Source: Alphaproteobacteria bacterium (GTDB taxonomy: Bacteria; Pseudomonadota; Alphaproteobacteria; UBA828). From it: a stretch of DNA of 64,000 nt. The notes beneath the pieces were generated by a model. The model made no database searches. It saw only the letters and a list, made by a program, of their open reading frames with translations, and was not told where the DNA came from. The stretch is taken from contig OZ243972.1 of assembly GCA_965214705.1 (NCBI GenBank), positions 608,001-672,000 on the forward strand. Reading direction: 5' to 3'. The translations under genes were made by a program, and so were the position numbers. Positions 974-26,860 of the stretch are shown here, piece by piece. Positions within the stretch are counted from its first letter, which is position 1, and every line of letters starts with the position of its first letter.

Positions 974-1015
974 ACCATTTTCTGTCTACAGTGCACCATT
1001 TTCTGTCTACAGTGC
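974..1015. repeat. Perfect 21-bp tandem duplication (ACCATTTTCTGTCTACAGTGC x2)
   Basis: Copies at 974-994 and 995-1015; the unit spans the stop codon of the Type IIG gene. Confidence 0.95.
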
Positions 1016-5086: not shown

Positions 5087-5346
5087 GCACCCATAGTCCG
5101 CGAATCGGCCCATCGTTTCAGCGTGACGCCATAAGCCTTCATCGCCATGGGAGGGTCAATAGCGATGCGATCCAACGAAATAACGAGCTGTTCGTTTCAA
5201 CGGCGGCAGAACTGAAGGTCACGAATAATCCGGGGTAGCGGATGTTCTTCAGCAGGCAACCCGGCAGGGTGGGTACCCAACGCCGCCGAGGCCGAACTCT
5301 GACCAACCGCGGCGGGAACTCGACATATCGCTAGAGCATGCAAACC

Positions 5347-6735: not shown

Positions 6736-6853
6736 CGCACCTTCGGTTCTAAGTGACTGATTCGATTGCAATGGTCTTCCGTTTCTATTGCCACAGGGCG
6801 CGGAATGCAAGCCCGTTCCGCACCCCGCTGCAACAGATCGGAGACGCGCGATC

Positions 6854-7981
6854 ATGCCGACCATCCACCTCACCCAGCGCCGGGTCGACGCCCTTCGGCC
6901 CCGCCGCAAGGTGCGCGATGTCCGGGACGCCGAACTCAAGGGATACGGCGTCCGGGTCATGCCCTCCGGCACCAGGCGCTACTTCATCCACAGCCAGCAC
7001 AGGGGCAAACGGGTCTGGAAGATCATAGGCGACGCGGCGGCGATCACCGAGCCCGAAGCACGGGCCAGGGCCAGATTGATGCTGGCTGCGCTGCGCGACG
7101 GTCGGGAGCCAGATGCGGCGGACGCCGGCGGCACCCTCTTCGAGACCGTCGCCGAGGAGGTCTTCGAGCGCTACGGGCGGCGCTGGAAGCCCCGCACCCT
7201 GGAAGTGAACCGGGCCTACCTGCGAAGGCAGATACTGCCTTTCTTCGCGGGCAGGCCCATCGGAGAGATAACACGGGAGGACGTGCGGGCCTGGTTCCGC
7301 GGGCTCCACGCGACGCCCGCCGCCGCAAACCGCTCGGCGCCCATCCTCTCGGTCATCATGCAGCAAGCCGAGGTCTGGGGATACCGCCCGGAGGACAGCA
7401 ACCCCTGCGCCGGCATCCGTCGCTACCGGCAGGGGCGGTCCGAGCGCTTCCTCACCCCCGAGGAGTATCGCCGCCTCGCCTGCGTGCTCACCCGGCACGA
7501 GGCCAGCCGCCCCCTGCACGTGGCCGCCCTGCGCCTGCTGCTGCTCACCGGGTGCCGCAAGTCGGAGATCCTCACCCTCCAATGGTTCTCCTACCGGGAG
7601 GGGCGGCTCTATCTGCCGGACAGCAAAGTCGGCCCGCGCACGGTCTGGTTGTGCGAGGCGGCACGCGATGTCCTCGACCGCCTGCCCCGGTCGTCCGGAT
7701 GGGTCTTTCCAGTCGGCGGTTTGCGCACCCCGTGGCTGTGGCTGGATTACTTCTGGCGCGGCGTGAGGGAGGAAGCCGGGCTGCAGGATGTCCGCCTGCA
7801 CGACACCAGACACTCATACGCCAGCATGGCGCTGCTCTGCGGCGAGAGCGTGCGCACCGTCGGCCGCCTGCTCGGTCACGAGAAGGCGTCGACCACCCTG
7901 AAATACGCCCACCTGTCCGACGCCACAGTCCGCGAAGCGGTCGAGACCCTGTCTCCCGTTCTGTCGGGGAGGCAGGCGTGA
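6854..7981 (+). CDS. Tyrosine integrase A of inner element
   Basis: 375 aa from ATG 6854; arm-binding N-terminus (DAELKGYGVRVMPSG); TGCRKSE, DSKVG, HDTRH, LLGH, TTLKYAH. Confidence 0.92.
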   Translation: MPTIHLTQRRVDALRPRRKVRDVRDAELKGYGVRVMPSGTRRYFIHSQHRGKRVWKIIGDAAAITEPEARARARLMLAALRDGREPDAADAGGTLFETVAEEVFERYGRRWKPRTLEVNRAYLRRQILPFFAGRPIGEITREDVRAWFRGLHATPAAANRSAPILSVIMQQAEVWGYRPEDSNPCAGIRRYRQGRSERFLTPEEYRRLACVLTRHEASRPLHVAALRLLLLTGCRKSEILTLQWFSYREGRLYLPDSKVGPRTVWLCEAARDVLDRLPRSSGWVFPVGGLRTPWLWLDYFWRGVREEAGLQDVRLHDTRHSYASMALLCGESVRTVGRLLGHEKASTTLKYAHLSDATVREAVETLSPVLSGRQA

Positions 7982-9150
7982 AGGGGCGGAGGGTCCGACT
8001 GACCGACGCGGGCGTCGGCAGGTTGAAGCCGGGCACCACGGAATACGCGGTCTGGGACAGCGAGGTGTCCGGCCTCGGCGTGCGGGTGCGCCCATCCGGG
8101 CATCGCAGCTTCGTCTGGCACGGGCGCGTCCGGGGAGAGCCGGTCAGAGAGACCGTCGGCCCGGTCGCGCTCATGACCGTCGAGGACGCCCGGAAGGAGG
8201 CCCTGGCGCTCCGCCTGGGAACCGCCCCGCGCGCGGCGGAAGGACGTTCCGGCGTACAGCTGTTCCGCGACTTCGTCCTCGATGAGTGGTTGCCAGCGTA
8301 CCGCCGCCGCTGCGCGCCATCGTCCTGCCAATTCGCCAATCGTGTGTTGGAACGGCAGCTGATCCCCGCCTTCGGCCGCCTCCCGCTGGACGCCATCCGG
8401 CGTATCGACATCGAACGATGGTTCGACGCCTACAGCCGCACCGCGCCGGGCGGAGCCAACAAGGCGCTCGAGATCCTCGGCCAGATCATGAACGCCGCCC
8501 TCGCCGCCGGCCATGTCGGGACCGCTCCCGTCAAGGGCATCGCCAAGAACCCCCGCCCGAAACTCACCCGGTTCCTCTCCGCCGAAGAGATCGAAAGGCT
8601 TCACCGCGTCCTTGATCGGCAGGTCAGTGAGCGGCCCTCCCGCCGGCAACAGGCCGACGTCATCCGGCTACTTCTGCTCACTGGCTGCCGGGTGGGCGAG
8701 ATCCTGAAGCTCCGATGGTCCGAGGTCGACGGTGACCGCCTCGATCTCGCCGACACCAAGACCGGGCCGCGAAGGGTCTGGTTGAGCCAAGCCGCGCAGG
8801 CCATCCTCGCCCGCCAGCCGCGTGCCGCAAGCCCTTACGTGTTCCCGTCCCGGAGGCATCCCGACAAGCCGCTCTCGCACTCCCTGTGCCTCTGGCGCCG
8901 GGCACGGAGGGAGGCCGGGCTCAGCGACGTCCGCCTGCACGATCTCAGGCATACCGTAGCCAGCCAGGCCGTCGCCCGGGGCGTTCCCCTGTCCACCGTG
9001 GCGGGCATGCTCGGCCACGCCGATCCCACAATGACCCTGCGATACGCCCATGTCGCCGATCGCGACCTGCAGGCCGCCGCCGAGCGCATTGGAAAGAGCA
9101 TTGAGGCCGCAATGGCGGGTGGCGAGCCGCCGGCAGAAGCGTCGTCCTGA
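7978..9150 (+). CDS. Tyrosine integrase B of inner element
   Basis: GTG start overlapping the intA stop (GTGA); VKGRRVRLTD...WDSEVSGLGVRVRPSG; TGCRVGE, KTG, HDLRH, MLGH, MTLRYAH; clear homologue of 5347-6513. Confidence 0.92.
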   Translation: MKGRRVRLTDAGVGRLKPGTTEYAVWDSEVSGLGVRVRPSGHRSFVWHGRVRGEPVRETVGPVALMTVEDARKEALALRLGTAPRAAEGRSGVQLFRDFVLDEWLPAYRRRCAPSSCQFANRVLERQLIPAFGRLPLDAIRRIDIERWFDAYSRTAPGGANKALEILGQIMNAALAAGHVGTAPVKGIAKNPRPKLTRFLSAEEIERLHRVLDRQVSERPSRRQQADVIRLLLLTGCRVGEILKLRWSEVDGDRLDLADTKTGPRRVWLSQAAQAILARQPRAASPYVFPSRRHPDKPLSHSLCLWRRARREAGLSDVRLHDLRHTVASQAVARGVPLSTVAGMLGHADPTMTLRYAHVADRDLQAAAERIGKSIEAAMAGGEPPAEASS

Positions 9151-12745: not shown

Positions 12746-14224
12746 CCAGGGGCCGCGCCACCACCGTCGAAGAGCACAAACCGAAGGCGCACCAACGCGC
12801 CGGCGTCGAGGCCACCCGCGCCCAGCTGGAGAAGAACGCGCGCGATATCGGGCCCCATGTCCACGCCTACATCGTCGCGCTCATGAAGCGGCAGAACAAT
12901 CCGGAGTTCGGCTTCCGTGCCTGCTACGGCGTCCTCCGGCTGGCCAAAAGCTACGAGCAGGACCGCTTCGACGGCGCCTGCCGCTACGCGCTCGAACTCG
13001 GCACGCGGAGCTACCGCGGGCTCGAGAACATCCTGCGCACCGGCGCGGACCGCGCCGCCGCCGAGCAGGAACCCGAGACCATGCCCATCGATCATTCCAA
13101 CATCAGAGGACCGGAGGCCTACCGATGACCGAAAACCCCGTCTCCCACCCGCTGGCCGAGCGCATCGCCTCGCTGCGCCTGCCAGGCATGCACGCCGCCT
13201 TCCTCGAGCAGGTGGCGCGCAACGACCTCGACGACATGCCCTTCGAGGATCGGCTCGCGCTGCTGATCGATCGCGAGATCGCCGAGCGCCGCTCCAGGGC
13301 CCTGCAGCGGCGCCTCAAGAGGGCGCAGCTGCGCCATCAGGACGCCTGCTTCGAGGATATCAACCTGAGCCGTCCGCGCGGCCTCGACCGCAGTCTCGTG
13401 CTCGGCCTCGCAGACTGCGCCTGGGTCCGCAACGGCGCCAACATCCTGATCACTGGACCGTGCGGCACGGGCAAGAGTTGGATCTCCTGTGCCCTTGGCC
13501 ACAAGGCCTGCCTCGAGGGCCACATCGCCCAGTACCACCGCGTGCCCAGGCTGCTCACCGAGCTGCGCATCGCCCATGGCGAGGGCACGACCCCGAAGCT
13601 CTACCGCGACCTCGCCCGCATTGAGGTGCTGATCCTCGACGACTGGGGCATCGCGCCCATTGATGCGGCTCGCGCGCGCGATCTCCTCGAAATCCTCGAC
13701 GACCGCTTCGGCCGGCGCTCGGTGATCGTCACCAGCCAGTTGCCGGTGGCCGATTGGCACCGCCAGCTCAACGATCCCACGGTCGCCGATGCCATCCTCG
13801 ACCGCCTCGTCCATGGTGCCATCCGCATCGAGCTGCACGGCACGTCCATGCGTATCGACGACGCTGCCGCAGGGAAAAAGGCATGAACGCGACTACAGAG
13901 CGCCGCGCTGCGCGCGGCGTGATCGTCGCTCCGCTCCGGGGCGTCGGAGGGGCGGGACGGATGGTGCCAGGCATGGCGCGCGCGCCGCCAGACGCGTGAG
14001 ATGTCTCACGCGCCGCGCGCGCACCATGCTCCACCGCCTTGCCACCGGGCCTTCGGCGGTGGTACCGATCACGGAGAAATCGCGGAGGGAGAACCGCCCA
14101 CAAAAACGTAACCGCGTCGCTTCGCTCCGGGGTGGCTACTTTGCTGAGATCGGGTGGCTACTTTGGATGAGATTCGCCGGCTACTTCGGGTGAGATTCAC
14201 CGGCTACATTGGTGAGACTGGGCA
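12746..14224 (+). mobile_element. Truncated second IS21-family element (istA 3' end, istB, right-end repeats)
   Basis: IstA C-terminus (FRACYGVLRLAKSY...HSNIRGPEAY) ending 13128; four ~23-bp GGCTAC(T/A)T...TGAGA repeats at 14130-14220 typical of IS21 ends. Confidence 0.85.
13125..13886 (+). CDS. istB: IS21 helper ATPase
   Basis: GPCGTGKS, LILDDWG, TSQLPV, ADAILDRLVH. Confidence 0.93.
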   Translation: MTENPVSHPLAERIASLRLPGMHAAFLEQVARNDLDDMPFEDRLALLIDREIAERRSRALQRRLKRAQLRHQDACFEDINLSRPRGLDRSLVLGLADCAWVRNGANILITGPCGTGKSWISCALGHKACLEGHIAQYHRVPRLLTELRIAHGEGTTPKLYRDLARIEVLILDDWGIAPIDAARARDLLEILDDRFGRRSVIVTSQLPVADWHRQLNDPTVADAILDRLVHGAIRIELHGTSMRIDDAAAGKKA

Positions 14225-14317: not shown

Positions 14318-17300
14318 TCAACTGTGGAGCTTGGGAATCCGTCCATGCTCGAGCAACTCAAATGCTTCGAGCACGTAGCGCTGCGTCCGATACTCGCCGA
14401 AAGCCCGCATTTCGTTCTGCTTGAGGGATGGGAAGGATGAGCTTGGTGCCTGTGCATCCAAGATCCACTCGAGATCGGAACGAGTGATCCCGTACATCTG
14501 AGCAAAGATCGCATCCAATTCGCAGCGGAGACCGTGGCGGCGGTCATCATTCCAAGAAAATGGCGGCCCATCAAAACCAAGATCGTTGGCGAAGCTCCTA
14601 ATTTCCTCGGATGTATAAGTCAATTCCAAAACCCGCGGAACTATAAGTTGGACGTACGGATGGCCGGTGCTGCTTTCCCTTAAGTACGCATTTGGCGGCA
14701 AGAGAGGAAGTTGCTTGAGAATGAAAAAATTCATGTGGACACCACCAACGGAAAAGCGTGCGGCCCAGTCGAGAGGGAGACTGTTCAGATTTGCCAGTAT
14801 CAATGCAGATGAGATTGAGCGACCGAAGGCGTATTCTATCGTTGGGGCACTATTGCCCAAACCGCTTTTGGGCGCATTTGCTGTGACAAGAGTCCGTTCG
14901 TTTGTGGCGTTCGTAATGTCGCGAAACGCGTGAAACCACCTCGCAATTTCCGTTCGAACGAGGGGCCCTCCGTCGCTCACAGCTGCGGCTCGCAGGAAGG
15001 TGGCGATGGATGTTCGTTCGTTGGTTGCGTTTGTAACTTTCCTGAATACGAGGATCCAACTGTAATCACTACCGCTGTATTGCCCACTGCTGCAATCGGA
15101 ATCATGGCTACGACCCCAGTCCGTTGGTCGGTCGCTCGGACGATATCCCGAAGAGTGAGTTGCGAGCCAGTTCCGTAAGAGTGTCGAATACAGCTCGGCT
15201 CGGCTCGGCTCGGCTCGGCTCAACAATTGCGTAGTGTTTCCGCTTATGTCAAGTCTTTCCGCAACTTCTTCTTCCGGAACCCAGTATCTCGGAGTGGCGA
15301 CCGCGGACGGATCGGACTTCTCGTCCGCCGTCATCGGTCTGGCATTTCCGTTTCGGATGTCACGGTCGGAGACGCCGTCGAATGTGGCAAACCTGTGGTC
15401 GTACTGATGGAAGAGCTTCGCCTCATAGAGCGGCAGATATCTCTCGTCGCCTCGGACGAACACGTTATTGTCGAGTTCCCATCCTTCCTCCTCCATTTCC
15501 TGTCGGGTCTTGAACAGACCCGAGTCGTTGGACATATCGAACATACGCTGGAAACTCACGCCCCACGGGTTCTTTTCGGGCTGAGAACCGGTGGTTTCCT
15601 TCCAGAACACTCCGGCTCTCCGGTACATCTTGCGTGCGATGTCCATGTCTCGTCTCGTGCGGAAGATTGGGCAGGTCCGGGTGTTGGGGTTGAACAGCGA
15701 GAAGTCTTCGGCGCTGAGCGTGAAACGTCGCTCGGGTTCCTTTAATTGCTCCGCCTGATGCAGGAAGAACGCGAACTCGGCTTCAGGTACGGGGTTGCCC
15801 TTGCCGCTCAATGCGAGGAGGCAGAACTTGATCCTGCTATCAATGCCTGGGAAGACTTTCTCGCGGTTCTCAAAGTCATACAGGCTGACAAGCCGTGACT
15901 GGGTTACGGTGTGCTCGAAGAACGCCCTGGTGGAGTGGTCCGTGGCGATGCCCGTGGGCACGATCAACCCGGCCCGGCCCTGAGGCTTGACAAGCTGCAG
16001 GAACGTCTCGGCGAAGACGGCATAGGTGTTCAGGTCGCCGACGCCAGTGAGCGGGTATCGGCCTGCGGTCCGGGCAAACTGGGTCGTCGCCTCGGCTTCC
16101 CGCTTTGCGGCTTCAAACTCCTGGTACAGAGCTCTTTCCGCCGGGAGCGCGTCATCGCGATTCAATTGTTGGATGAGACGATCACGCGCAGCCTTGTTCG
16201 GCGCCGCTGCGATCTCCGGGGAACGAGAAGCGAAAAACTCCTGCTCCTGCAGCTTGATGCGTTCCCACGGCGGGTTTCCGAGAATAGCGTCGAATCCGCC
16301 GTCCTGCATGATCTCGGCGAACGCGAGATGCCAGTGATGAAAGCGGTAGGTGTGGCTGAGGTCTCGGACAAGGTTTTCGACACCGGGGCGCCGTGGGACG
16401 TTGCGGTCGAGGCGATCGATATCCTCGCTGAGAGGCACGATGTCGAGGCTGTCGCGCGTCTTTGGCGCGAAGTACGTCCCGACGAAGAGGTCGGCGCGCA
16501 TGGCCTCGCGGGCGCGGGTCTCGTCGCGCAGCACGGCATGCCAGGTCGCGCGCTTGCGCTCCACTTCTTCCAGTGTTTCCTCGGGCATGGCGTCCAGGTC
16601 GAGGCTCGAGATGGCGACCTCCATGACGGCATCCTGATCGAAGAGGCCGCGTTGCCCCCGATGCCGGTTGTTCCTCTTGAGGTCCCTGCAGACGGCCTTG
16701 TCATCGCCAGTCAAGGGCTTGTATGCGTCAGGAGTAACGCCGTTCGCCATGATCTCGGGATCGAGAATGCCGACCAGGCTGTCGCCCTGAAGGATGTGGG
16801 GATCGAGGAACGTGAGCGGCTTGCCGGGCTCGACCGTCTCCATCCAGAGCGCAGTCTTGCAGAGTTCGACGGCGAGCGGGTTCCGATCGACGCCATAGAT
16901 GCAGTGCTGGACCACCTCGCGCAGCGCGTGCTGGCGGGTACTTTCGTCCGACGTGTCCGCGCCGGACTCGATACGGGCGATCTCGGCGGCAAGGCGGCGG
17001 GCCGCAGCCAGCAGGAAATGCCCGGAGCCGCAGGCTGGGTCGACCACCTTCAGGTCGAGAATCGCGGCGCGCGGATCCTCGGGGCGTGCTTTGACGGCGT
17101 CCGCGATAACGGGGTCGAGCGTCGACTTGATGAGCTCGCTGACCAGCGACGGCGGCGTGTAGTAGGAGCCGGTGAGCTTTCGCTCGGACCCCTTGGCGCG
17201 TTCGCCATTTCCTTCACCGGTGAAGGCGAATGTCCAGGGCGAGGCGTCCACGTCGATGACCGGACGAAGCTCCAGAAGGCTCTCGTATACGGAACCCAAC

Positions 17301-18568
17301 TCCTCCGTATCCATGTCCCGGTAGTTGACGCGGGCGAGGCTGTTGCCGGAACGGAAGAACGCGAGGGTGCGGACGGCTTTGAGAAGATGATTGTTGGCGA
17401 TGGCGGCACCGTCGAGGTCGGGACATTCGCCGTCTCGGAACAGGCCACCGAGTGGCGGCAGCCCCAGTCCAGGAGCGCCCTGGGCTAGCGCGCCAAAGGT
17501 GATCTGAAGCCCTTGCCAGAGGTCGCGGTTCTCGTCGTAATGGCGGCGGCGCAGCGCGCGCTCGCGCAGCCGCGAGAGCGCGTAGCCGTTCACGAACACT
17601 GCTCTTTGTTCGTCCGCGGCGTCCGGCGCGTGAAGCAGGTTGCGCTCCTCGGCGGTGAAGAGAAAGAGCAGGCGATAGATGAGCCGAAGGAGCTGCTGGA
17701 AGTAGAGCTCCGATGAAAGCGCGCCGGTTTCGAGCGCTTCGCGCAGCTCGGTGTTCGCCGGATGGCGAAGGAACCCGTTTCCGATTTGACGCAGCGCGTC
17801 GGTGACGCCGTCACGGAGATTCTCCCGAATGCGTTCACCGGTCTCCTGCGCCTTGGCCCGCCAGGACTCGATGATGCAGCTCGACGGCTTGTCGTCGAGG
17901 GGCCGGAGGCGGCTTGAATGGGCGGTGAGCCAGAGGGCGGCGAAGTCGGGGTAGAGCTCTTCCGCGAAGACGAGGTCAAGGTCGGCCTCGATGTAGGACG
18001 GCCGGGTCAAGCTCGGATTGTCGCGCAGGATCCGGAGCTTGGAACCGTTGGAGATCATGCCCCACAGCGCAGCGTCCTCGGCATTGAGGTACTCCTGCAT
18101 CATGCCCTGTGGCGCCTGCCGTCGGCCGTCGTGACCGAGACGCGGATCGGCCCTGTCGAGGTCAAAATCGTGCGTGACGAGCAGCAGCGGCACGGCGCCT
18201 TCGCAGGCGCGGTGTGTCAGCCGGAACACGCGGCCTTCCAGCACGACGCTGTCGGCCGCTATAAGATCGTCGTAGCCGAGGAGCGAACGCAGGAAGGGGA
18301 CGAGCCATTCTTCGACGTCGACCTGGGGCGCGGTGAGATCCCGGCGGGGACGGCGCTCTGAATAGCGTCCGTAGAGATCGTTGGCGATGCGCCAGTAGCG
18401 GGCAAGCTCCTCCTTGATTGCAAGCGATTTCGAGAGGCCGTAGTCGGCGCCGGTCTGACGGGAGGCTTCCAGCGCGGCGACAGCGTGCAGGAATTCCGAG
18501 GGGAGGATGCCCCCTTCAATCTTCAGGGCCGTGAAGCCGCGGCTAGCTCGGACGTTCGCCATGGTCAC
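14318..18568 (-). CDS. N6-adenine DNA methyltransferase (DrmMI/Type IIG-like) with internal SSR and triplicated TRD segment
   Basis: GSYYTP, DPACGSGHFL, GNPPW; N-terminus lacks an obvious PD-ExK; start overlaps the SNF2 stop (GTGA); SRAEPSRAE encoded by the SSR. Confidence 0.9.
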   Translation of the reverse strand: MTMANVRASRGFTALKIEGGILPSEFLHAVAALEASRQTGADYGLSKSLAIKEELARYWRIANDLYGRYSERRPRRDLTAPQVDVEEWLVPFLRSLLGYDDLIAADSVVLEGRVFRLTHRACEGAVPLLLVTHDFDLDRADPRLGHDGRRQAPQGMMQEYLNAEDAALWGMISNGSKLRILRDNPSLTRPSYIEADLDLVFAEELYPDFAALWLTAHSSRLRPLDDKPSSCIIESWRAKAQETGERIRENLRDGVTDALRQIGNGFLRHPANTELREALETGALSSELYFQQLLRLIYRLLFLFTAEERNLLHAPDAADEQRAVFVNGYALSRLRERALRRRHYDENRDLWQGLQITFGALAQGAPGLGLPPLGGLFRDGECPDLDGAAIANNHLLKAVRTLAFFRSGNSLARVNYRDMDTEELGSVYESLLELRPVIDVDASPWTFAFTGEGNGERAKGSERKLTGSYYTPPSLVSELIKSTLDPVIADAVKARPEDPRAAILDLKVVDPACGSGHFLLAAARRLAAEIARIESGADTSDESTRQHALREVVQHCIYGVDRNPLAVELCKTALWMETVEPGKPLTFLDPHILQGDSLVGILDPEIMANGVTPDAYKPLTGDDKAVCRDLKRNNRHRGQRGLFDQDAVMEVAISSLDLDAMPEETLEEVERKRATWHAVLRDETRAREAMRADLFVGTYFAPKTRDSLDIVPLSEDIDRLDRNVPRRPGVENLVRDLSHTYRFHHWHLAFAEIMQDGGFDAILGNPPWERIKLQEQEFFASRSPEIAAAPNKAARDRLIQQLNRDDALPAERALYQEFEAAKREAEATTQFARTAGRYPLTGVGDLNTYAVFAETFLQLVKPQGRAGLIVPTGIATDHSTRAFFEHTVTQSRLVSLYDFENREKVFPGIDSRIKFCLLALSGKGNPVPEAEFAFFLHQAEQLKEPERRFTLSAEDFSLFNPNTRTCPIFRTRRDMDIARKMYRRAGVFWKETTGSQPEKNPWGVSFQRMFDMSNDSGLFKTRQEMEEEGWELDNNVFVRGDERYLPLYEAKLFHQYDHRFATFDGVSDRDIRNGNARPMTADEKSDPSAVATPRYWVPEEEVAERLDISGNTTQLLSRAEPSRAELYSTLLRNWLATHSSGYRPSDRPTDWGRSHDSDCSSGQYSGSDYSWILVFRKVTNATNERTSIATFLRAAAVSDGGPLVRTEIARWFHAFRDITNATNERTLVTANAPKSGLGNSAPTIEYAFGRSISSALILANLNSLPLDWAARFSVGGVHMNFFILKQLPLLPPNAYLRESSTGHPYVQLIVPRVLELTYTSEEIRSFANDLGFDGPPFSWNDDRRHGLRCELDAIFAQMYGITRSDLEWILDAQAPSSSFPSLKQNEMRAFGEYRTQRYVLEAFELLEHGRIPKLHS
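15193..15221. repeat. Pentanucleotide SSR (GCTCG)5+GCTC, i.e. (GAGCC)n on the coding strand
   Basis: Read directly; lies in the MTase coding sequence just upstream of the repeated TRD segments. Confidence 0.95.
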
Positions 18569-21423
18569 AGGGATGCCATGGGCATGAAGACGTACACGCC
18601 GATTTTGTCGACGGGTAGTGCCGGAACGACGTCGTAGCGCAGCCCCCTGGCGTCGCTCGCCTCGCGGACGCGGCGATGGTCTGCGAGCAACCCGCGGGCC
18701 TGCTCATGGGCAACGCGTGCGAATGCGTCTTCCATCCCCGGCAACGCGTCGAGGGCCTGCCGTACGAGGTGGACCTTCTGGCCGTCCGCCATGTTTCGTC
18801 CGGGCTCCAGCGTGAGAAGCGACAACGCGTCGTCCTCGGTCATTATTTCGGGACTGGCGCCGCCCCGGACCGCAACGCCCAGACACTCCTCGGCGAGAAG
18901 TGACCTGAGCGGCGAGAAGCGGCCGTCCGGCCCGCGCCGCTCTATCTGGAGTTGGCAGCGCAGGCGCAGGAGATAGAGCACGGTGCGGGTGTCGACCGCG
19001 CGCGTGAACATCGCCCCCGCGCGGGCGCCGATTTTCGGATTGGTAGCGTCGAGCGCCTTCTCGGCGACATAGTCCGCCAGCACTGCCACAAGCGGATGCG
19101 CACGGTGGATATAGTCCGCACCGGCCGGGGCGGGCTGGGCGAAAGCGATCTTCGCCGATGCATCGAATCCGATGGCGTCGAGACGATCCTGAAGGGGCTT
19201 CGGGAAATGAACGACCGGCATCCGGCAATAGCCGTCCCGTCGGTCAATAGCAGCGCCCAGGCGCTCTGCGGACAGACGCACGAAGCGGTCGACATCGCTG
19301 GGACCGCCCAACACCGATACGGCTTTGCGCCATTCGGGAAGCACGTCGTCCGGGGTCAGGCGGCGCTGGGCGAAGACCGTGCGCGTCATCCGGTTGCTGG
19401 CCGTGCGCCATGCGTCGTCCACTTCGGTCTCGGTCTCGGCGAATTCGAAGGCCATTTGGTCGGCCCGGGAATGTCTGCCGCGGTGAAGCAGGACGGCCTT
19501 CATGATGGCGTCGATCACCTTGTTGTTGTCCGCGGGCAAGGGCACGGCGACGCCGAGTTCCTTGCGGATCTTTTCGGCCTTGCGAAGGATCACGCGGAGG
19601 ACGGCGCCGTCGACGGGATTGTTCTCGCCGTAGAGCATGAGCGCGCGAACGGTGCGGGAAGCTTGGCCGAAACGGTCGGCTCTGCCCTCGCGCTGTTCGT
19701 GGCGGGTCGGATTCCAAGTGAGGTCGTAGTGGACCACGGCGTTGAAGTGGTTCTGGAGGTTGACACCTTCGGACAGGCAGTCAGTGGCAACCAGGACGGG
19801 CGTAATCTTCTCATCGAGTTCACCGAGCGCCTCGACCCGCTCTTCGCGTTGATCGGAAGTGAGCTCCCCGGTGACCACGGCGACATGGGCATTTCCGGCA
19901 CCCAACGCCTGCTTCAGTTCGTGGCCAACATAGTGCGCGGTGGCGATGTAGCGGCAGAAGACGACGGGCCGGAAACCGTCGAGCACGAGCCGGCCGACCT
20001 CGTCGATCAGCGCCGTGAGCTTGGGATCGTTCCTCGGACCGCGCAACGAATCCGCCCGGTCGATGAGCTGGCGCAGGGCCTTGGCATCCTCGGCCTCGAC
20101 GGTGCCGGCGGGAACGCTCTCGGTGAGGGCGAGTGAGTCGTCGGCCGTCTCGTCCATCACGGTTTCGCCTGCCTTCCGGTCCAGGTGTTCGACCTGCGCA
20201 TCCTCCGTGTCGCCCTCGGTTGCCTGGAGACGGGTTCGAAGCGCGAGCGACGCGGCGGCCGGGCTTGAGGAAGCGCAGCGCAGCAGCGCGAGCGCGGCCC
20301 ACCAAGACATTCGTTGCTGAAGCCTGGTCCCTTCCGAAGTGCGGTCGACCATGGTTCTTGCGTAGTCGAGGACGTCGTCGAACAGGCCGCCCCATTCGCC
20401 GGTCAGGCGGTAGGTCGCTTCCCGGCTTTCGCGGACCGGAAAGCCTGCCTCGTCCTTCCACTCGGCGATGTCGCCGCGTCGGCGCTGCACGAAATGCAGC
20501 GCGAGTTCTTCGCGCAAGCGGCGGCGCATCTCGCCTTCGGGTGCGTCGGCCAACGCCATGAATTTCGTTTCCAGCAAGCCAAGCAGGTTGTGAAAGGCGG
20601 TGTCATCGCCCGAATGCGGTGTCGCGGTGAGGAACACCATGTGCCGGCGCGGCTCGCTGCCCGCGAGGCCTTTGAGAAGCTGGTAGCGCTGGTGTCGGGT
20701 ATCCGTGTTCGATCGCACGCAGGCGTGCGCCTCGTCGACGATGACGAACTCCGGGCAGGCGCGAAGGAAATCGCTGCGGCGCCGATCCGACTTGATGTAG
20801 TCGAGGGAGACGACCGTATAGGGATGCACCTCGAACACTGACTCATCCGGGCGAAGACCCCGCTCCAGGCGGGTGGCGGTGCCGGTGCGCACGACCTCGG
20901 CGTCGATGGCGAACTTCTCCGAGAGTTCCCGTTGCCACTGTTCGCACAGGTGGGGCGGGCAGATGACGGAAAGGCGCTCGATCTCGCCCCGGTCGAGCAG
21001 TTCCCGCGCGATCAGGCCTGCCTCAATGGTCTTGCCGATACCGACGTCGTCGGCGACGAGCAACCGGATGGTGTCGAGCTTCAGGGCCATGAGCAAGGGA
21101 ACGAACTGATAGGCGCGCGGTTCGACATTAAGATTGCCGAAGCTGCGGAAAGGTCCCGCGCCGGCACGCAACTTGAGGCGAAGCGCGTCGCGCAACAGCA
21201 GCGCTGCCTGCTGGGAGCCTGGCGCGTCGGGATTGGGAAGATCGAACGTCGCGGGCACCGGCGCCTCGGGTTCGAGCGGAAGGTAGATGAGCGTCGCATC
21301 GTCTTCCGCGCCGCCGAGCGGACGAAGCTTGAGGAGATCGTCGCGCGGCTCGGGGAGGACCACCCACTCGCGGTGCCTCGCCCTGACTAGGTCTCCCGGC
21401 ATGAAGGTGATCGCCGCGTCCAT
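18565..21423 (-). CDS. SNF2-family helicase (DrmD-like)
   Basis: ADDVGIGKT, IVDEAH, LTATPH, SEGVNLQ, WNPTRHEQREGRADRFGQ; PGDLVRAR..EWVV N-terminus. Confidence 0.92.
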   Translation of the reverse strand: MDAAITFMPGDLVRARHREWVVLPEPRDDLLKLRPLGGAEDDATLIYLPLEPEAPVPATFDLPNPDAPGSQQAALLLRDALRLKLRAGAGPFRSFGNLNVEPRAYQFVPLLMALKLDTIRLLVADDVGIGKTIEAGLIARELLDRGEIERLSVICPPHLCEQWQRELSEKFAIDAEVVRTGTATRLERGLRPDESVFEVHPYTVVSLDYIKSDRRRSDFLRACPEFVIVDEAHACVRSNTDTRHQRYQLLKGLAGSEPRRHMVFLTATPHSGDDTAFHNLLGLLETKFMALADAPEGEMRRRLREELALHFVQRRRGDIAEWKDEAGFPVRESREATYRLTGEWGGLFDDVLDYARTMVDRTSEGTRLQQRMSWWAALALLRCASSSPAAASLALRTRLQATEGDTEDAQVEHLDRKAGETVMDETADDSLALTESVPAGTVEAEDAKALRQLIDRADSLRGPRNDPKLTALIDEVGRLVLDGFRPVVFCRYIATAHYVGHELKQALGAGNAHVAVVTGELTSDQREERVEALGELDEKITPVLVATDCLSEGVNLQNHFNAVVHYDLTWNPTRHEQREGRADRFGQASRTVRALMLYGENNPVDGAVLRVILRKAEKIRKELGVAVPLPADNNKVIDAIMKAVLLHRGRHSRADQMAFEFAETETEVDDAWRTASNRMTRTVFAQRRLTPDDVLPEWRKAVSVLGGPSDVDRFVRLSAERLGAAIDRRDGYCRMPVVHFPKPLQDRLDAIGFDASAKIAFAQPAPAGADYIHRAHPLVAVLADYVAEKALDATNPKIGARAGAMFTRAVDTRTVLYLLRLRCQLQIERRGPDGRFSPLRSLLAEECLGVAVRGGASPEIMTEDDALSLLTLEPGRNMADGQKVHLVRQALDALPGMEDAFARVAHEQARGLLADHRRVREASDARGLRYDVVPALPVDKIGVYVFMPMASL

Positions 21424-21440
21424 TTCCTGTCCTCCAGATC

Positions 21441-24400
21441 TCATTTCGGGGCCGACGACGCGCCCGGCCCGAAAACCCAAGCGTACTCGTCAACAACGCG
21501 GGCCCACGATGTCCGATCCTCGTCGAAGCGCACGACCGTGAGTCCGGCGTCGTGGAGGCGTCGGGTTACCTCGGCGTCGAGGGTCTGTTGGCGATCGCCT
21601 CGATGGTGAGGGCCGTCGATATAGACCAGGGTCTGATCAGCGGTGTAGGCGAAATCGGGCCGAGTATCGAATTCCTCCAGGTAGGGCTGCGCCCGGTCGG
21701 GGAGGCGGTAACCGTTGTCCTTGATGTAGCGCAGCCAAGCCTTCTCCAGAGCGGAGCCGGCGACGTTGTTCAGTTCCTCGAAGTCGTCGCCGGCGCTTGC
21801 GGAATGGCCGAGGCTCCTTCGCTCGCCGCGGGTCAGCCGGCATAGCAGATCGAGCATGGCTTCGTCGCGCCGGTCGATCATCGGATGGTCGGGCTGATTG
21901 TAGTAGCTCAGCAGGCAGCGGTAGCAACCAGCCTCGCAATCACTATCGCGGTTGTCGAGGTCATCCCATCCGGTCCAGCGTCCGGAGCGCGATGTGTAGT
22001 GGCAGACTTCGAGCGCCTTGCGGGCGATCCGGCCAAGCGCGCCGGGATCGCTGGCGAGACGCGTAAGAACGCCCGCGCCGCCTTCGGCGGACTCGTAGAA
22101 CAGGATGGTGGTGCGGTTATCGCGGTCGGGCAGCGGCTCGGCGGCAAGCTCCGCTTCCTCAAGTTGAAACTCTTGCTCGATGCCACGCTTGATGGCGTAT
22201 TGCAGGGAGACCATGGCCGTCTCGCTGAGATCGACCGTCGGACGAAGCACGAGGACGTTGCGGGTATCTTCGACGAAGGGGGTGATGCGCTGGACGCTTT
22301 TTCCGTCCCGCACGGCGTCGTCTTCCGCGTCGGTGGGCGCCTGCGAGTCTTTGGTCCATTCGCCGGTGTTGGCATCCACGCTGAAGCCGTAGACGGATTT
22401 CTCCTCGCGACGGCGCCAGCCGAGATTGATGCGCCAGAGCGTCGAGGCCGGGCCGTAGCGCAATTCCAGCAGGGTCTGGCCGCTTTCCTCGACGGCGAAA
22501 CTCTCGACGCGGGCGCGGCCGTTCTCTTCGCTGTAGCGAAGCGTGGTAACCATTTCGTAACCTTGGCGCTGGCGTTCTTCCTCGTCCGAAGTGATTCGGT
22601 TCACCCGCTGGGTCGACACCTGTTCGATGCGGTAGAGATTGAGAATCGCTCTCCCGCCATCCAGACGCGCGTCGCAACTGACGCAGCGTTCATAGTCCTT
22701 CTGATCGCCGAAGTGGCCGTAGCCGCAGGCGGGACAGATGCGCGCGGCCTGAACCGGGAGCCTGGCCGACGCGGTCACGCCGGCTTCGTCGCGAATGGAC
22801 AGGATGGCGCGGCGCACGCGGTAGGTGCTTCCCTCGTGATAGATGATGGACTGGGGGCCGAACTCGGTGAGGCCGAGAAAGCGGGGCCGGCTCAGGAACG
22901 AGTCGCGGGCCACCTTCTCGCGGCGGCCCGGAACGAAGGCCATCAGCGGCAGGCGCGGGAAGTTGTAGCCTGGCAGGAACCCTTCGGCGGCTAGATAGCG
23001 ATAGGTGTAGAAGTCGGAATTCATCGTCGGCCTGCTGTGCAGAAGCAGGTTTTGCTGGGTGTACGCTTCGTCGTACCGTGCCTTGGCTTCGCGGCGCTCC
23101 TGTTCGGTCGAGGCGGCGTTGTTGACGACATCGTTGGCGAACTTCATCTGGTTCGCCGTCGCGCGAAACAGCGAACGCCAGCGGCCGAACGCGTCGTCGA
23201 AGCGACGATCGGCGGAATTCATCGCGTTGGCCAACCATGTGTCGGTGTACCAGGGGGCGGCTTGCCGCGAGAGATCCGGCGTGAGTGTTGAAAGAATGCG
23301 CTGCGCGCGGACGCTCGCATCGCTGACCGCCCGGGGGGATCGGATCTGCTCGGCGATCTGGTCGTGCAGGGGCAGCGTGTCAGGCTTTTCCCGGTCGAGC
23401 ACGTCACGCACGGAGGAGCCGAGCATGATGCCGGTTTCCGCGAGCCAGACGGCCTGAAGGTGGCTGCGGATCAGGTCCTCGTTCGCGAGATCGATGTTCG
23501 GGGGATTGACGGCGCCAGCCACCATGCGCGTCGGGTCGGCGAAGAAGTATTGGTCATGCGGCGACTTCGCGGCGCAGTAGGTGACGACCAGCGCAGGCTG
23601 GCCGCTGCGCCCGGCCCGCCCGCTGCGTTGGGCGTAATTCGCGGGCGTGGGCGGCACGTTGCGCATGTAGACTGCGTTCAGCGTCGAGATGTCGACGCCG
23701 AGTTCCATGGTCGGTGAGCAGAACAGTATGGGCAGCCCGGCGGGTTCGAGACCCTTGCGGAAACGGAGCTCACGCTCCTCACGGGCATCGGTGTCGACCT
23801 GGGCGGTATGTTCGCGCGCCTCGAGCTGGTGGAGAAGGCGGTCGTCGCTGTTGAGGAGCACGGCCACGTTCTCGTAGAGGTTGCGGAAAAACACATTGGC
23901 CGCGCCCAGGTCCGCCGTGGCCTCTCCGGCGAGGCGCCATTCAAGCACCGAACCGTCGATGCGGTAGCCGGTGCGATCGCCGTCGAGGTCCTGTGGCTCG
24001 ACATAGCCGTAGGTGGCAAGCACGCTCAGGAGGTCGTCGATGACGGTGTTGTAGACGTCCTCGTCGAACTTGGGCGGATAGCAGGGATTACCCTGCCCCC
24101 AAAATGACTGGGACTTCACCTTGCGGCCGAAAGCTGATCGGTGAGACATATGAAGAATGCGAAAATCCCGCCGGGGTCCGCGGCCGCCGGGTCTGGGCAC
24201 CATGAAGGCATGAGAGAACAGGCGCTCTTCCTCCGATAGTCCCCACGGCTCCTTCAACTGGTTGAAGCTTCGGTTGCGTATCTGTTCTTGAAAGTTCGGA
24301 TCGAGGTAAATGGTCTTGATGCACAGCGCTCTTCGCATGCGCTCAAGAAGGTCACTTACTAATTCGAAGCGGCGCGTGGGCTCGATGGAGCCGAGCAGCG

Positions 24401-26669
24401 GATGCCGTGCGCGCCATTCCTCTTCATCTTCGCAGCAATCCATGAGGCCTCGGTAGCCGATGTCCAGCAACTCCAGCTGCTCAAGATTGGGGTTGGTGAT
24501 GCGCCAGCCGCGCTGCAAATCGAAGTAGAGCCGGTAGCCGAGTACGTCGCGAAGCGTCTTGATCGTGTTCTGGGCCTTGATGCCCTTGGCCTCGGCATTG
24601 GCTGAGTAGTCCCACGCGTCTAGGTGCAGGCGGGCGAGCACGGCCTGGGTCAGAACGTCGTCGGTGAGCAATCCGCCGGGCTCGGCCCGAATGGCAGAAA
24701 GGAGCGCGCCCCGCAGCAGCAGAATCTGTATGAAGTCGTTGAAGTGGCCGGCCTGGAGGCTTGCGTCCTGACGGTTGTCGGTGAACGCGAGTAGCTTCTT
24801 GGTCTGCTCGTCGAGGTCTGCGCCAATGAGATGCTTCAGCGAGGAGAGCGCCAGCACCGTCGTGGCGGAGCTCCGGCCCTCGCTAGAGAGCCCCGAGAGC
24901 TTGGTCATGTCGCTCCGAACGCTGCCGTCGTAGTAGGCGTCGCAATCCGGATGCAAGCAGAAGCGGAAGGGTCCCGGGATGAACCAGGCGGGCAGGCCGT
25001 CCACAGACACGGCACCTCGCGTATCGACCCGGACACCGAAGGGCCGGTAGCGGCGGAAATGGGACTTGAGCCGGGTCTCGTCGCCGCGGAATTCCAGCCA
25101 GTCCTCCGGGTACTGGTTCTCGGTGTCCGTAGGATCGAACAGTCCGAAAGGGTCCGGCATGAGATAGCCGAACTGGACGTCCTCGTCGTCGTTGGATCGT
25201 TCGGACAGGTCGCGGGGTTCGAAGGCGTGCGGCTGCTTGCCGACATGCTTCGCCCAGACCGGCAGGTATTCCTGGCCGCAGGCGCGGCAGAAGGCGAGGG
25301 AGAAAAGAGAACGGTCGCGGTCTCCGGGTTTGAATTGCTGCCCGTGCAGGGTGAGATACCGCTCGTCCGGCGCTTCAAGCGTCGTGTAGGCGTTCCAGGC
25401 GCCGCTGATGAACTGGTGCAGCCGGAAGGCGAAGAAGCTCTGGCCTCGCTCATTCCGGCTTCGGTGGGCGGTCAGGAGAAAGTTCGCTAAATAGTCGCGG
25501 CAATGCTGCGCGTCGAGTCCGCTGTCGACGGAAAGACGATCCGAAGCCTGGAGAACGGTCAGCGGACGCGAAATTCGCACGAGCTTGCCGCCTTGCTCTT
25601 CGAGCCCGAGATTGCGCTCCACCCAGGTCGCGGCCGGGTGGGCCGCGAGCGCTTGATGTGTCGGATTCGCGGGAACGCCCCGCTCGATGGAGGCGCGCAG
25701 ATCGGAGCTGCTCAGGCTCGCGTCGTGGTCGGTGACCGGCCGTAAAGTTTCCGAAACGACATTGCCGGGATCGACAGTTGCACCGAACAGGCGGCTTGCG
25801 ATGGCCGCAACGGCGGCGTTCCGGTCGTCGGGCGAGCCTTCGGAGGCCATCGTCGCCGAGGTGCCGATACAGAGAAGGCGCTCGTTGAACCTCTCCCGGA
25901 CGCGTCGGACGAGCATGGCGACATCGGCCCCCTGCCGCCCGCGATAGGTGTGCAACTCGTCGAGAACCAGGAACCGGAGTCCCTTGGCGTGTTCGCGGAT
26001 CGCCTTGTCAGTCTCGTGGAACCGCGTCATGACCAGCTCGAGCATGACGTAGTTGGTCAGCAGAATGTCAGGAGGGTTCTTTGCGATCCGCTCGCGTTCA
26101 TCCTGCGATTCCTGCCCGGTGTATCGGGCGAACGTGACCGGCTCGCCGCCTTCGCCGTAACCGAGCCGCAGATACTTCTCCAGTTCCTCGCGCTGGCTGT
26201 TGCAGAGCGCGTTCATCGGATACACGACGATGGCGGTGATGCCCTTGCAGGCGTCGCCGGCACGCTTTCGCCGCAATACGTTGTCGACGATCGGGATGAA
26301 GTAGGCGAGCGATTTGCCGGAGCCGGTGCCTGTGGTCAGGACGTAGCTTTCGACCCGTCTAGCGATTTCGATGGCCTCAGTCTGGTGCCGGTGGAGCAGG
26401 AGTCGCTCGCCGAATGTGTTGTACCCACGCTTCAGCCGGAACACCTTCGCGCACTCAGCATCGAGCGTGCCGTCAGCGACCAGGTCGTCGATATATCCGC
26501 CGGGCTCGAAGTTCGGATTGAGCTGGATAAGCGGGGCGGGCCAGAAGTGGCCCTCGGCGTAGGCCGCATCGACTTCGCGGGAGATGTCCTCGGAGCGGAT
26601 CCTGGCGAAGCTTCGGGAGAAACGCCCGTACTCGGCGACGAGTTCCTCCCGGAAGGCGAATACGTCCAT
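21441..26669 (-). CDS. Large YprA-family DEAH helicase with Zn fingers, DUF1998 and C-terminal Vsr/DUF559-like nuclease
   Basis: TTGTGSGKS, LDELH, SATM, SPTMELGVD, QRSGRAGR; CRAC, CPAC/CVSC; CEAGCYRCL (DUF1998); PDFAY...YIDGPHH. Confidence 0.9.
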   Translation of the reverse strand: MDVFAFREELVAEYGRFSRSFARIRSEDISREVDAAYAEGHFWPAPLIQLNPNFEPGGYIDDLVADGTLDAECAKVFRLKRGYNTFGERLLLHRHQTEAIEIARRVESYVLTTGTGSGKSLAYFIPIVDNVLRRKRAGDACKGITAIVVYPMNALCNSQREELEKYLRLGYGEGGEPVTFARYTGQESQDERERIAKNPPDILLTNYVMLELVMTRFHETDKAIREHAKGLRFLVLDELHTYRGRQGADVAMLVRRVRERFNERLLCIGTSATMASEGSPDDRNAAVAAIASRLFGATVDPGNVVSETLRPVTDHDASLSSSDLRASIERGVPANPTHQALAAHPAATWVERNLGLEEQGGKLVRISRPLTVLQASDRLSVDSGLDAQHCRDYLANFLLTAHRSRNERGQSFFAFRLHQFISGAWNAYTTLEAPDERYLTLHGQQFKPGDRDRSLFSLAFCRACGQEYLPVWAKHVGKQPHAFEPRDLSERSNDDEDVQFGYLMPDPFGLFDPTDTENQYPEDWLEFRGDETRLKSHFRRYRPFGVRVDTRGAVSVDGLPAWFIPGPFRFCLHPDCDAYYDGSVRSDMTKLSGLSSEGRSSATTVLALSSLKHLIGADLDEQTKKLLAFTDNRQDASLQAGHFNDFIQILLLRGALLSAIRAEPGGLLTDDVLTQAVLARLHLDAWDYSANAEAKGIKAQNTIKTLRDVLGYRLYFDLQRGWRITNPNLEQLELLDIGYRGLMDCCEDEEEWRARHPLLGSIEPTRRFELVSDLLERMRRALCIKTIYLDPNFQEQIRNRSFNQLKEPWGLSEEERLFSHAFMVPRPGGRGPRRDFRILHMSHRSAFGRKVKSQSFWGQGNPCYPPKFDEDVYNTVIDDLLSVLATYGYVEPQDLDGDRTGYRIDGSVLEWRLAGEATADLGAANVFFRNLYENVAVLLNSDDRLLHQLEAREHTAQVDTDAREERELRFRKGLEPAGLPILFCSPTMELGVDISTLNAVYMRNVPPTPANYAQRSGRAGRSGQPALVVTYCAAKSPHDQYFFADPTRMVAGAVNPPNIDLANEDLIRSHLQAVWLAETGIMLGSSVRDVLDREKPDTLPLHDQIAEQIRSPRAVSDASVRAQRILSTLTPDLSRQAAPWYTDTWLANAMNSADRRFDDAFGRWRSLFRATANQMKFANDVVNNAASTEQERREAKARYDEAYTQQNLLLHSRPTMNSDFYTYRYLAAEGFLPGYNFPRLPLMAFVPGRREKVARDSFLSRPRFLGLTEFGPQSIIYHEGSTYRVRRAILSIRDEAGVTASARLPVQAARICPACGYGHFGDQKDYERCVSCDARLDGGRAILNLYRIEQVSTQRVNRITSDEEERQRQGYEMVTTLRYSEENGRARVESFAVEESGQTLLELRYGPASTLWRINLGWRRREEKSVYGFSVDANTGEWTKDSQAPTDAEDDAVRDGKSVQRITPFVEDTRNVLVLRPTVDLSETAMVSLQYAIKRGIEQEFQLEEAELAAEPLPDRDNRTTILFYESAEGGAGVLTRLASDPGALGRIARKALEVCHYTSRSGRWTGWDDLDNRDSDCEAGCYRCLLSYYNQPDHPMIDRRDEAMLDLLCRLTRGERRSLGHSASAGDDFEELNNVAGSALEKAWLRYIKDNGYRLPDRAQPYLEEFDTRPDFAYTADQTLVYIDGPHHRGDRQQTLDAEVTRRLHDAGLTVVRFDEDRTSWARVVDEYAWVFGPGASSAPK

Positions 26670-26860
26670 CAGCGGCTCCTCGACCCCGCGTCGTTGGCGC
26701 GCGCCTCGATCGCGGCGCACCGCTCCATCAGCGCATCGCACGCTCCGGCGTCATCAAGCAGCATGCCATCGGCCAACATCCGTGCATAGTCATCGGCGAG
26801 TACGGCAAGCGCGGCGCCGGCGGGCACGAGTTGCAGGTCGCCGGATACCGCTGCTTCGTA

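Follow-up and report, generated by a model that had tools for sequence, protein, structure and literature searches.

The locus described here raises the question of why a bacterial gene should keep a homologue of part of its own product in a reading frame in which it is not now read. It lies in a 64,000-nucleotide (nt) stretch of contig OZ243972.1 from an alphaproteobacterium of the GTDB lineage UBA828, which is called the window; all coordinates are positions in it. A gene on the minus strand of the window encodes an N6-adenine DNA methyltransferase, and the DNA for the C-terminal part of this enzyme contains three diverged copies of a short element, here called cassettes A, B and C, one of them out of frame. 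A preliminary description suggested that these copies may be a store of alternative target specificities. The present analysis points to another use: slipped-strand phase variation probably picks between the fused full-length enzyme and shorter, cassette-capped or split forms, and the cassettes probably belong to a conserved module for such variation, carried by the methyltransferase gene of a DISARM-like defence operon.

Homologous cassettes in two reading frames

Three-frame translation agrees with the preliminary description in placing B and C in the annotated frame (frame 0) and a third homologue, A, in the +1 frame. The element is ca. 35 amino acids (aa) long and follows the pattern W..FRDIT.aT.ERT...P..GvGN..P. 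Cassette A reads LTLRDIVRATDQRTGVVAMIPIAAVGNTAVVI. Cassette B, WILVFRKVTNATNERTSIATFLRAAAVSDGGPLV, has W1171 as its first residue (coordinate 15058), and cassette C, which begins WFHAFRDITNATNERT..., has W1211 (coordinate 14938). Cassette A is a real homologue – its similarity to a distant single-cassette relative is above chance in BLASTP (E = 9e-8), and hhalign of A against a 47-sequence profile gives a probability of 96% (E = 2.8e-9). The three copies are also well diverged in DNA, as had been claimed, with 33 of 105 aligned columns invariant.

A non-triplet repeat ahead of the cassettes

The key part absent from the preliminary description is a pentanucleotide repeat upstream of A, which would supply the frame shift. 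This (GAGCC)5.8 tract lies 30 nt upstream of A, within the reading frame, from about residue 1116, and its unit is not a multiple of three. Pentanucleotide repeats of at least 4 copies are found just 4 times in the whole 7.9-Mb genome, this one included. The repeat stands at 79% of the gene, and each frame beyond it gives a different C-terminus, as in C-terminal phase variation. In frame 0 there are 290 readable codons after the repeat, to the gene stop; in the +1 frame there are 71, running through A to a TGA at 14979–14977; and in the +2 frame there are 27.

Within the genus, the copy number of this unit is 5.8 in the window and 9 in genome G012; in genome G014 it is at least 16 in one contig and 25+8 in another, both of which break there. 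Four more assemblies end or break inside the repeat – three at contig ends (L012, L015 and L019) and G014 in its contigs C79 (L181) and C142 (L171) – as is expected of a long or heterogeneous tract. In sequencing run X6, from the same organism as the window, contigs run up to the repeat from either side and end at 15183 and 15229 (gap 15184–15228). This break is a weak hint of tract-length heterogeneity, weak because contigs cannot reveal minor length variants. In runs X1–X3, which are sponge or marine metagenomes, 4–5% of the sampled words were present, and no habitat is drawn from them.

The genome has other long simple repeats. A second repeat of the same unit, (AGCCG)10 at G000:C1:3425222-3425271 (L167:7223-7272), is the longest non-triplet repeat found in it. 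An open reading frame (ORF) 66 nt downstream of this tract codes for a protein of more than 2554 aa that has SWM_repeat, PKD and Big_5 domains; this may be a further contingency locus. Two long homopolymers are C26 at G000:C1:1444214-1444239 (L168), within a 573-aa ORF with no Pfam match, and G22 at G000:C2:618750-618771 (L169), at the edge of ORFs with no Pfam match.

The same layout in unrelated bacteria

A protein search with residues 1000–1416 gave 6981 matches among 8000 scored candidates, of which the best 60 and a list of 120 were examined. DNA was compared in 80 loci from one-genome-per-species contigs and 78 from metagenomes, plus same-genus relatives. Nearly all of the best 60 relatives have B and C in tandem, ca. 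40 residues apart. Many of them also have peptide repeats of 5 aa or 8 aa at the place of the window's repeat, followed by ca. 45 unconserved residues; these peptides are translated non-triplet DNA repeats. By a conservative count, peptide repeats are detectable in 34 of the 115 relatives, among the 120 listed, that have the PRYW anchor.

The layout is shared by 21 loci in which the region is covered: the window, 17 one-genome-per-species loci and 3 metagenome loci. They come from Alpha- and Gammaproteobacteria, Rhodothermales, Acidimicrobiia, Bryobacterales, Longimicrobiales, Caldilineaceae and Verrucomicrobiae. In every repeat-bearing locus, the repeat starts 50–96 nt after the PRYWV codons. 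The repeat units are of 1, 4, 5, 7, 8 or 10 nt in 5–49 copies, and the unit differs from locus to locus. Examples are (GCCGA)38 in L009, (GAGCA)49 in L039, (CAAC)37 in L020, (AGAGCAGC)18 in L033, (AATCAAGCAG)9 in L018 and C29 in L013.

There are two types of cassette arrangement. Type 1, with A in the +1 frame and B and C in frame 0, is found in 15 loci including the window. Type 2, found in 6 loci, has cassettes X, Y and Z in the +2, +1 and 0 frames, at a spacing of 113 nt. Cassette A is offset by +1 from B in all 14 type-1 loci measured, and also in L172 and the G014 contig L171. The spacing from A to B is 107 nt in 13 of the 14 measured loci, and that from B to C is 120 nt in 11 of the 13 loci having C; the exceptions are L011 (123 nt) and L026. 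Such regular distances speak against the deletion or recombination between cassettes that the preliminary description had offered as one way of choosing among them. The exception L026 is a Bryobacterales locus (L026:5180-5640) with ca. 530 nt inserted between B and C and a shifted frame, and is probably a decaying copy.

About 60 more distant relatives have a single cassette, which aligns with C, and no repeat at the site. Some of these carry an insertion of 100–150 aa exactly at the repeat site, which therefore tolerates insertions. One single-cassette relative is a paralogue in the window itself, on the minus strand. It had already been noted as having one cassette, at 1007–5086; this is confirmed, with the extent corrected to 1007–5113. 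The paralogue is a DrmMI/type IIG-like protein of 1368 aa, 30% identical to the enzyme discussed here, and its gene adjoins one for a 794-aa phage-type integrase (6766–9150, plus strand).

It is highly improbable that all this is an artefact, either of chimeric assembly or of frameshift errors in sequencing, or that programmed ribosomal frameshifting takes the place of DNA slippage. Many of the genomes are metagenome-assembled and homopolymer lengths are error-prone, but runs X4 and X5 each yield a 1252-nt contig that spans 14420–15671 with 0 differences to the window. The layout is therefore not an assembly chimera, and its recurrence in 21 loci also speaks against the chimera of strain alleles that the preliminary description had named as a danger. 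As to programmed ribosomal frameshifting, inspection of the loci by eye, with no formal scan, found no conserved slippery site at the A/B junction.

Selection in more than one frame

Purifying selection was examined through stop codons, protein identity and the ratio of non-synonymous to synonymous substitution rates (dN/dS) in 13 type-1 loci over 38 codons and 6 type-2 loci over 36 codons. Cassette A in its own frame (+1) has 0 stops, a mean identity of 47% and a dN/dS of 0.31. The same DNA has 0 stops in frame 0 as well, with a mean identity of 26% and a dN/dS of 1.45; in the +2 frame it has 35 stops and a mean identity of 36% (dN/dS was not computed there). Cassettes B and C in their own frame (0) have 0 stops, with mean identities of 41% and 54% and dN/dS of 0.28 and 0.19. 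The combination of a low dN/dS and no stops in the +1 frame with a dN/dS of 1.45 in the stop-free frame 0 means that the protein reading of A is the +1 frame. Cassette A is thus under purifying selection in the +1 frame and read there as protein, and frame 0 across it is merely kept open. The impression given earlier that the annotated frame looks like junk over A holds in the sense of this low identity and high dN/dS.

The offset that is open over A meets 12 stops over B and 23 over C. In type 1, the +1 and 0 frames are both open over region A, and frame 0 alone is open over region B. In type 2, no stop interrupts X in any of the three frames; Y is free of stops in the +1 and 0 frames and has 25 in the +2 frame; and Z is open in frame 0 alone, with 14 and 12 stops in the others; the dN/dS values in their own frames are 0.34, 0.17 and 0.16. 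These counts by region and frame thus describe a staircase: a frame runs into one cassette and is then soon closed.

Plain on/off phase variation would need none of this: frame 0 alone would matter, and A (or X and Y) would be decaying relics of duplication. Switching on and off by repeats is the common case in methyltransferases (PMC5909438, PMC7383803, as far as these sources were available), and the +2 frame of the window's type merely truncates the protein. This account is disfavoured and very unlikely: read in their own frames, A, X and Y are free of stops and have a dN/dS of 0.31, 0.34 and 0.17, in loci that are only ca. 59% identical in DNA over cassette A. The stops that end the alternative frames are also positioned through synonymous codon choice, as described below. 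Gene conversion between the cassettes of one genome, or concerted evolution, is likewise disfavoured – orthologous cassettes share specific features across genomes, not with their neighbours in the same genome, such as the TG..AMIP that follows the RT of the motif in A.

Frame states in nature

All three frame states occur. The frame of the N-terminal body relative to the tail is 0 in 6 of the 21 loci (the window, L010, L011, L013, L014 and L016), +1 in 10 (L009, L018, L020, L021, L029, L033, L039, L089, L156 and L172) and +2 in 5 (L017, L025, L041, L090 and L026). Most of these genes are intact apart from the jump at the repeat: their N-terminal frames run open through 1150 codons or more, and in most loci the tail frame is open from upstream of the repeat through to the end. 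As in phase-variable genes, tract length and frame differ between related genomes. The database also has 1131 short proteins of 121–385 aa that resemble the last 220 aa, so the split state is common in public data.

Selection by frameshift is plausible, with A kept by selection, a repeat ahead of it and three frame states in nature. The picture of three alternatives is not supported: nearly all close relatives have both B and C, one behind the other and in the same frame, so that neither stands in for the other.

Stops that overlap starts

The +1 frame ends where frame 0 could begin again. In 19 of 20 loci, the codon for the Val or Met in the third strand of B (or of Z) is part of the sequence RTGA (GTGA or ATGA), at one fixed place, so that the TGA of one frame overlaps the GTG or ATG of the other. 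Where the residue is Val, its codon is GTG in 8 of 8 loci (gene-wide share 0.29), and where the next residue is Ser, its codon is AGY in 13 of 13 (gene-wide 0.36), though kinship among the loci inflates any formal P value for this choice. The stop–start overlap is thus held by synonymous codon choice. RTGA is the first +1 stop in 9 of 14 type-1 loci. Three of the 6 type-2 loci (L010, L018 and L039) close the +2 frame with a TTGA at the first residues of Y. At this site those three loci, and also L089, which ends in CTAA there, use AGA or AGG, rare codons for Arg.

A further overlap is specific to cassette A. In 10 of 13 type-1 loci, a Met-Ile or Met-Thr of A, encoded with ATGA, overlaps the second stop of the +2 frame (about 15105–15100 in the window). 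It could pass ribosomes from the +2 to the +1 frame; codon choice gives no test there.

A variant of the proposed phase variation builds on RTGA: a split enzyme, in which the +1 frame stops at RTGA and translation re-initiates on the overlapping GTG or ATG, giving an A-capped body and a separate 220-aa chain that re-associates with it. The repeat would then switch between a fused and a two-chain enzyme, altering dose or regulation. This variant is possible but doubtful. The codon usage at RTGA and at the type-2 TTGA would fit it. So would two proteins that have no peptide repeat, P0003 and P0045, in which A is in frame and joined to B minus its first strand, then to C and the tail; their arrangement looks like a fixed A state, and an enzyme with A plus tail is therefore tolerated. 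Moreover, 81 of the 120 best short database proteins start at RTG, a position exactly 14 residues ahead of the cassette C tryptophan (W).

Gene callers prefer overlaps of 4 nt, and these starts are therefore not independent evidence of initiation. The 5 of 14 type-1 loci with a +1 stop before RTGA speak against re-initiation there. The Shine-Dalgarno duplex energies at RTG, computed with a generic anti-Shine-Dalgarno motif, do not clearly exceed background: 4 of 19 sites are in the best tenth (p = 0.11), and the site in the window is at the 53rd percentile.

Target specificity

The reading proposed in the preliminary description was that the segment lies in a target recognition domain, that the cassettes probably contact target bases, and that the array may hold alternative methylation specificities chosen by frameshift, deletion or recombination, or alternative folding. 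The cassettes do follow the catalytic domain, programmed inversions of coding segments are known to affect DrmMI-like genes (PMC9881135), and the truncated and fused HsdS forms of NgoAV are reported to differ in specificity (PMC9577141), a precedent by which long and short forms could differ in target; both papers are drawn on in part.

The cassette, however, is among the best-conserved C-terminal segments, the opposite of a specificity-determining loop. Residues R1216, R1225 and P1233 are nearly invariant in 50 sequences, and unrelated genomes whose enzyme has a single cassette carry it in near-identical form. Such conservation leaves a role in target specificity unsupported. Cassettes B and C nearly always occur together in one frame, the spacing is constant with no recombination variants among the loci, and the alternative frames terminate the protein soon past their cassette. 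Stored specificities are thus an unlikely explanation.

The label of target recognition domain is not supported either: the cassette is not variable, and the region matches no Pfam family or solved structure in the searches made. A Protein Data Bank search with the whole protein gave only a weak match in the catalytic domain (E = 0.016), and profile searches there with the N-part and C-fragment alignments gave 0 matches at E <= 10. There was no shared Pfam family in 50 C-terminal regions at E <= 1. By these searches, the C-terminal 370 aa appear to have no solved or Pfam relative. The pattern of a cassette plus a helix may resemble the C-terminal domains of other gamma-class methyltransferases, a likeness on which no argument here rests.

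Proposed mechanism

In the proposed phase variation, the repeat, which lies in a permissive linker ca. 20 codons past PRYWV, would be a hypermutable tract, and the homologous cassettes behind it are staggered over the reading frames. The length of the repeat modulo 3 would set the frame in which ribosomes exit it. The exit frame would in turn decide which cassette caps the N-terminal body of ca. 1100 aa, and whether the C-terminal module stays fused. In its present state, frame 0, the window would give a single 1416-aa chain of body, linker, B, C and tail. One unit more or two fewer would lead to the +1 frame and a chain of ca. 1197 aa ending in cassette A and a short tail, and the GTG that overlaps the +1 stop would offer a possible re-initiation of the last 220 aa. 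One unit fewer would lead to the +2 frame and the stop inside A, with a predicted product of ca. 1153 aa. Slippage within populations would move the gene among these states. The short forms would be functional, most likely as a cassette-capped enzyme lacking the C-terminal module or with the module as a separate chain. If so, the system would toggle activity, not choose among targets.

A more elaborate form of this mechanism is put forward tentatively. The repeat, the staircase of dual- or triple-coded cassettes and the RTGA and TTGA overlaps might together make a three-state switch in overlapping frames, with ribosomes stepped down frame by frame to give a fused, two-chain or truncated enzyme. 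The body would always end in a proper cassette, and the attachment or dose of the C-terminal module, and hence the defence activity, would be varied stochastically. If true, the locus would exemplify a general gene architecture that is proof against frameshifts and has spread among phyla through horizontal transfer.

Several points weigh against slipped-strand phase variation as described. In the contigs, which are the only data on this point, no switching within a population was seen directly, those of X4 and X5 being at the reference length. The +2 frame has no cassette in the window's type, so that a cassette for every frame is a property of type 2 only. The early +1 stops given above count here as well, as does the lack of a clear Shine-Dalgarno signal. 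The search for repeats covered all periods in the window and non-triplet units only in the other loci. Most loci are from metagenome-assembled genomes, in which repeat lengths, above all those of homopolymers (L013, L014, L016 and L041), may be mis-assembled. Finally, L026, L029, L039 and G012 have further breaks and may be decaying.

The operon and its surroundings

The methyltransferase has matches to the Pfam domains Eco57I (5.1e-19), N6_Mtase (8e-10) and MmeI_Mtase (9e-7), the last with a marginal score (28.7 bits, cut-off 27). The PADLOC model for DrmMI (PDLC02643) matches with E = 1.4e-75, limited to residues 459–769 of 1416, and PADLOC type IIG models also match parts of the protein. 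The MmeI_N endonuclease domain of Pfam has no match in it at E <= 0.01; the paralogue has a weak match (E = 0.0058) that is below the cut-off.

Three genes of the same strand – those for the methyltransferase, an SNF2-type helicase and a 1766-aa helicase – overlap in a chain (Table 1). The last unites a helicase and an MZB (former DUF1998) domain in a single protein. The SNF2 helicase scores 329 bits with the NCBIfam model DISARM_DrmD, under the cut-off of 610, and the locus is therefore called DISARM-like and, as judged by such models, not a certified member of DISARM. No PLD domain was found by Pfam among the 3 operon proteins and 7 other window ORFs scanned, and the ORFs past 26741, scanned against PADLOC only, had no match. 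Directly downstream of the methyltransferase gene are an IstB-like IS21 ATPase gene (13125–13886, plus strand) and a 23-nt tandem repeat of 3.7 copies (14134–14217).

Table 1. Features of the methyltransferase gene and its operon, with the basis of each assignment
Feature	Position	Strand	Basis
Conserved C-terminal module, fused in frame 0 only	14321..14836	-	Alignments; no Pfam family, no solved relative
Cassette C, frame 0; counterpart of the single cassette in ordinary relatives	14837..14938	-	Alignment; dN/dS 0.19
Cassette B, frame 0	14957..15058	-	In tandem with C in close relatives; dN/dS 0.28
GTGA: TGA ending the +1 frame (71 codons past the repeat) overlaps GTG (Val, third strand of B, frame 0)	14977..14980	-	Translation; conserved RTGA
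Cassette A, +1 frame; the same DNA is an unconserved linker in frame 0 at present	about 15064..15159	-	Three-frame translation, BLASTP, hhalign
First +2-frame stop, TAG, inside cassette A, 27 codons past the repeat	15108..15110	-	+2 translation
Proposed slipped-strand switch: perfect simple sequence repeat of a 5-nt unit, (GAGCC)5.8 as read on the coding strand	15193..15221		Tandem Repeats Finder: period 5, 5.8 copies, 100% matches
PRYWV codons, last conserved anchor ahead of the variable linker	15278..15292	-	Kept in the window and 115/120 listed database relatives
N6-adenine DNA methyltransferase, DrmMI / type IIG-like, 1416 aa, now in the fused (frame 0) state	14318..18568	-	ORF list, translation, Pfam, PADLOC
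SNF2-type helicase, directly upstream, overlaps the methyltransferase start	18565..21480	-	Pfam SNF2-rel_dom and Helicase_C; PADLOC DpdE 4e-199, DrmD 2.7e-86
DEAD-box helicase, 1766 aa, with MrfA Zn-binding MZB (former DUF1998) domain and weak DUF559 match	21441..26741	-	Pfam; PADLOC DruE-like

Significance

Simple-repeat phase variation is known mainly from host-adapted pathogens and is usually viewed as an on/off matter. The present design is conserved and has spread horizontally – it is found at 21 loci in no fewer than seven bacterial phyla, with more than 1000 database proteins like the split-off tail – and points to stochastic control of DISARM-like defence in environmental bacteria. Selection acts on the DNA behind the repeat in two or three frames simultaneously, which gives every frame a defined product; clear cases like this of functional overlapping coding are rare in bacteria. 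There is also a warning for annotation, in that many pairs of a methylase and a 220-aa hypothetical protein are one switchable gene.

Comparison with known systems

The literature searched has repeat-driven methyltransferase switching, C-terminal switching, NgoAV and the DrmMI inversions. Homologous cassettes staggered over frames behind a repeat were not found in it, supplements lying outside the coverage, which agrees with the preliminary description in knowing no earlier account. The sources cited below were available in part, and the comparisons hold for those parts.

The phasevarions of Type III mod and Type I hsdM/hsdS genes are alike in having a non-triplet repeat in a methyltransferase gene, with a length that varies between genomes (PMC5909438, PMC7383803, PMC4417156). 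Unlike the present locus, they are described as simple on/off switches with the repeat usually early in the gene, and these papers, so far as covered, describe no conserved out-of-frame modules. The Type IIG enzyme Cj0031 of Campylobacter jejuni, a fused restriction-modification-type enzyme, phase-varies via a poly-G tract (PMC4889913; cited in PMC9881135), but it does so on/off only and belongs to another subfamily, and alternative-frame cassettes are not reported for it in those accounts.

A closer precedent for split and fused forms set by a repeat is the Type I system NgoAV of Neisseria gonorrhoeae. There a poly-G tract determines whether HsdS is made in truncated form or as an HsdS1-HsdS2 fusion, and both forms are active (PMC9577141). 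NgoAV differs in having a separate specificity subunit with two unrelated target-recognition halves and no staggered homologous cassette in the account covered, and in that a change of specificity has been proven for it.

The operon can be compared with Class 1 DISARM of Serratia sp., which has an SNF2 helicase, an N6-adenine methylase and a helicase with DUF1998 (bioRxiv 10.1101/2021.12.28.474362). It differs from this in the fusion of helicase and DUF1998 in 1766 aa, in the lack of PLD among the proteins scanned, and in not reaching the curated NCBIfam cut-offs. Loss of the methylases in the Serratia system is reported to occur without autoimmunity (same source), and a switching methylase can therefore be tolerated and need not be lethal. 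In DISARM-like loci with a helicase and DUF1998 in one coding sequence, a DrmMI-like gene is targeted by programmed inversions (PMC9881135). The same kind of gene in the same kind of locus is thus under programmed variation in both cases – by site-specific inversion of coding segments there, and by repeat slippage with frame-staggered copies, as proposed, here.

The nearest relation is with C-terminal phase variation in Helicobacter canadensis and Neisseria gonorrhoeae, in which a tract late in the gene switches the C-terminus among three frames, sometimes fusing the next ORF (PMC2823697, PMC5320596). There, as here, a late repeat selects the C-terminus by frame. The ends described there are short and unrelated, behind homopolymers, in host-adapted pathogens. 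Here, in contrast, the frames encode conserved homologues of one element, under purifying selection and with dual or triple coding, behind units of 1–10 nt and in many environmental phyla. The best-supported reading is that this locus extends C-terminal phase variation, with each alternative end beginning with its own copy of a conserved element.

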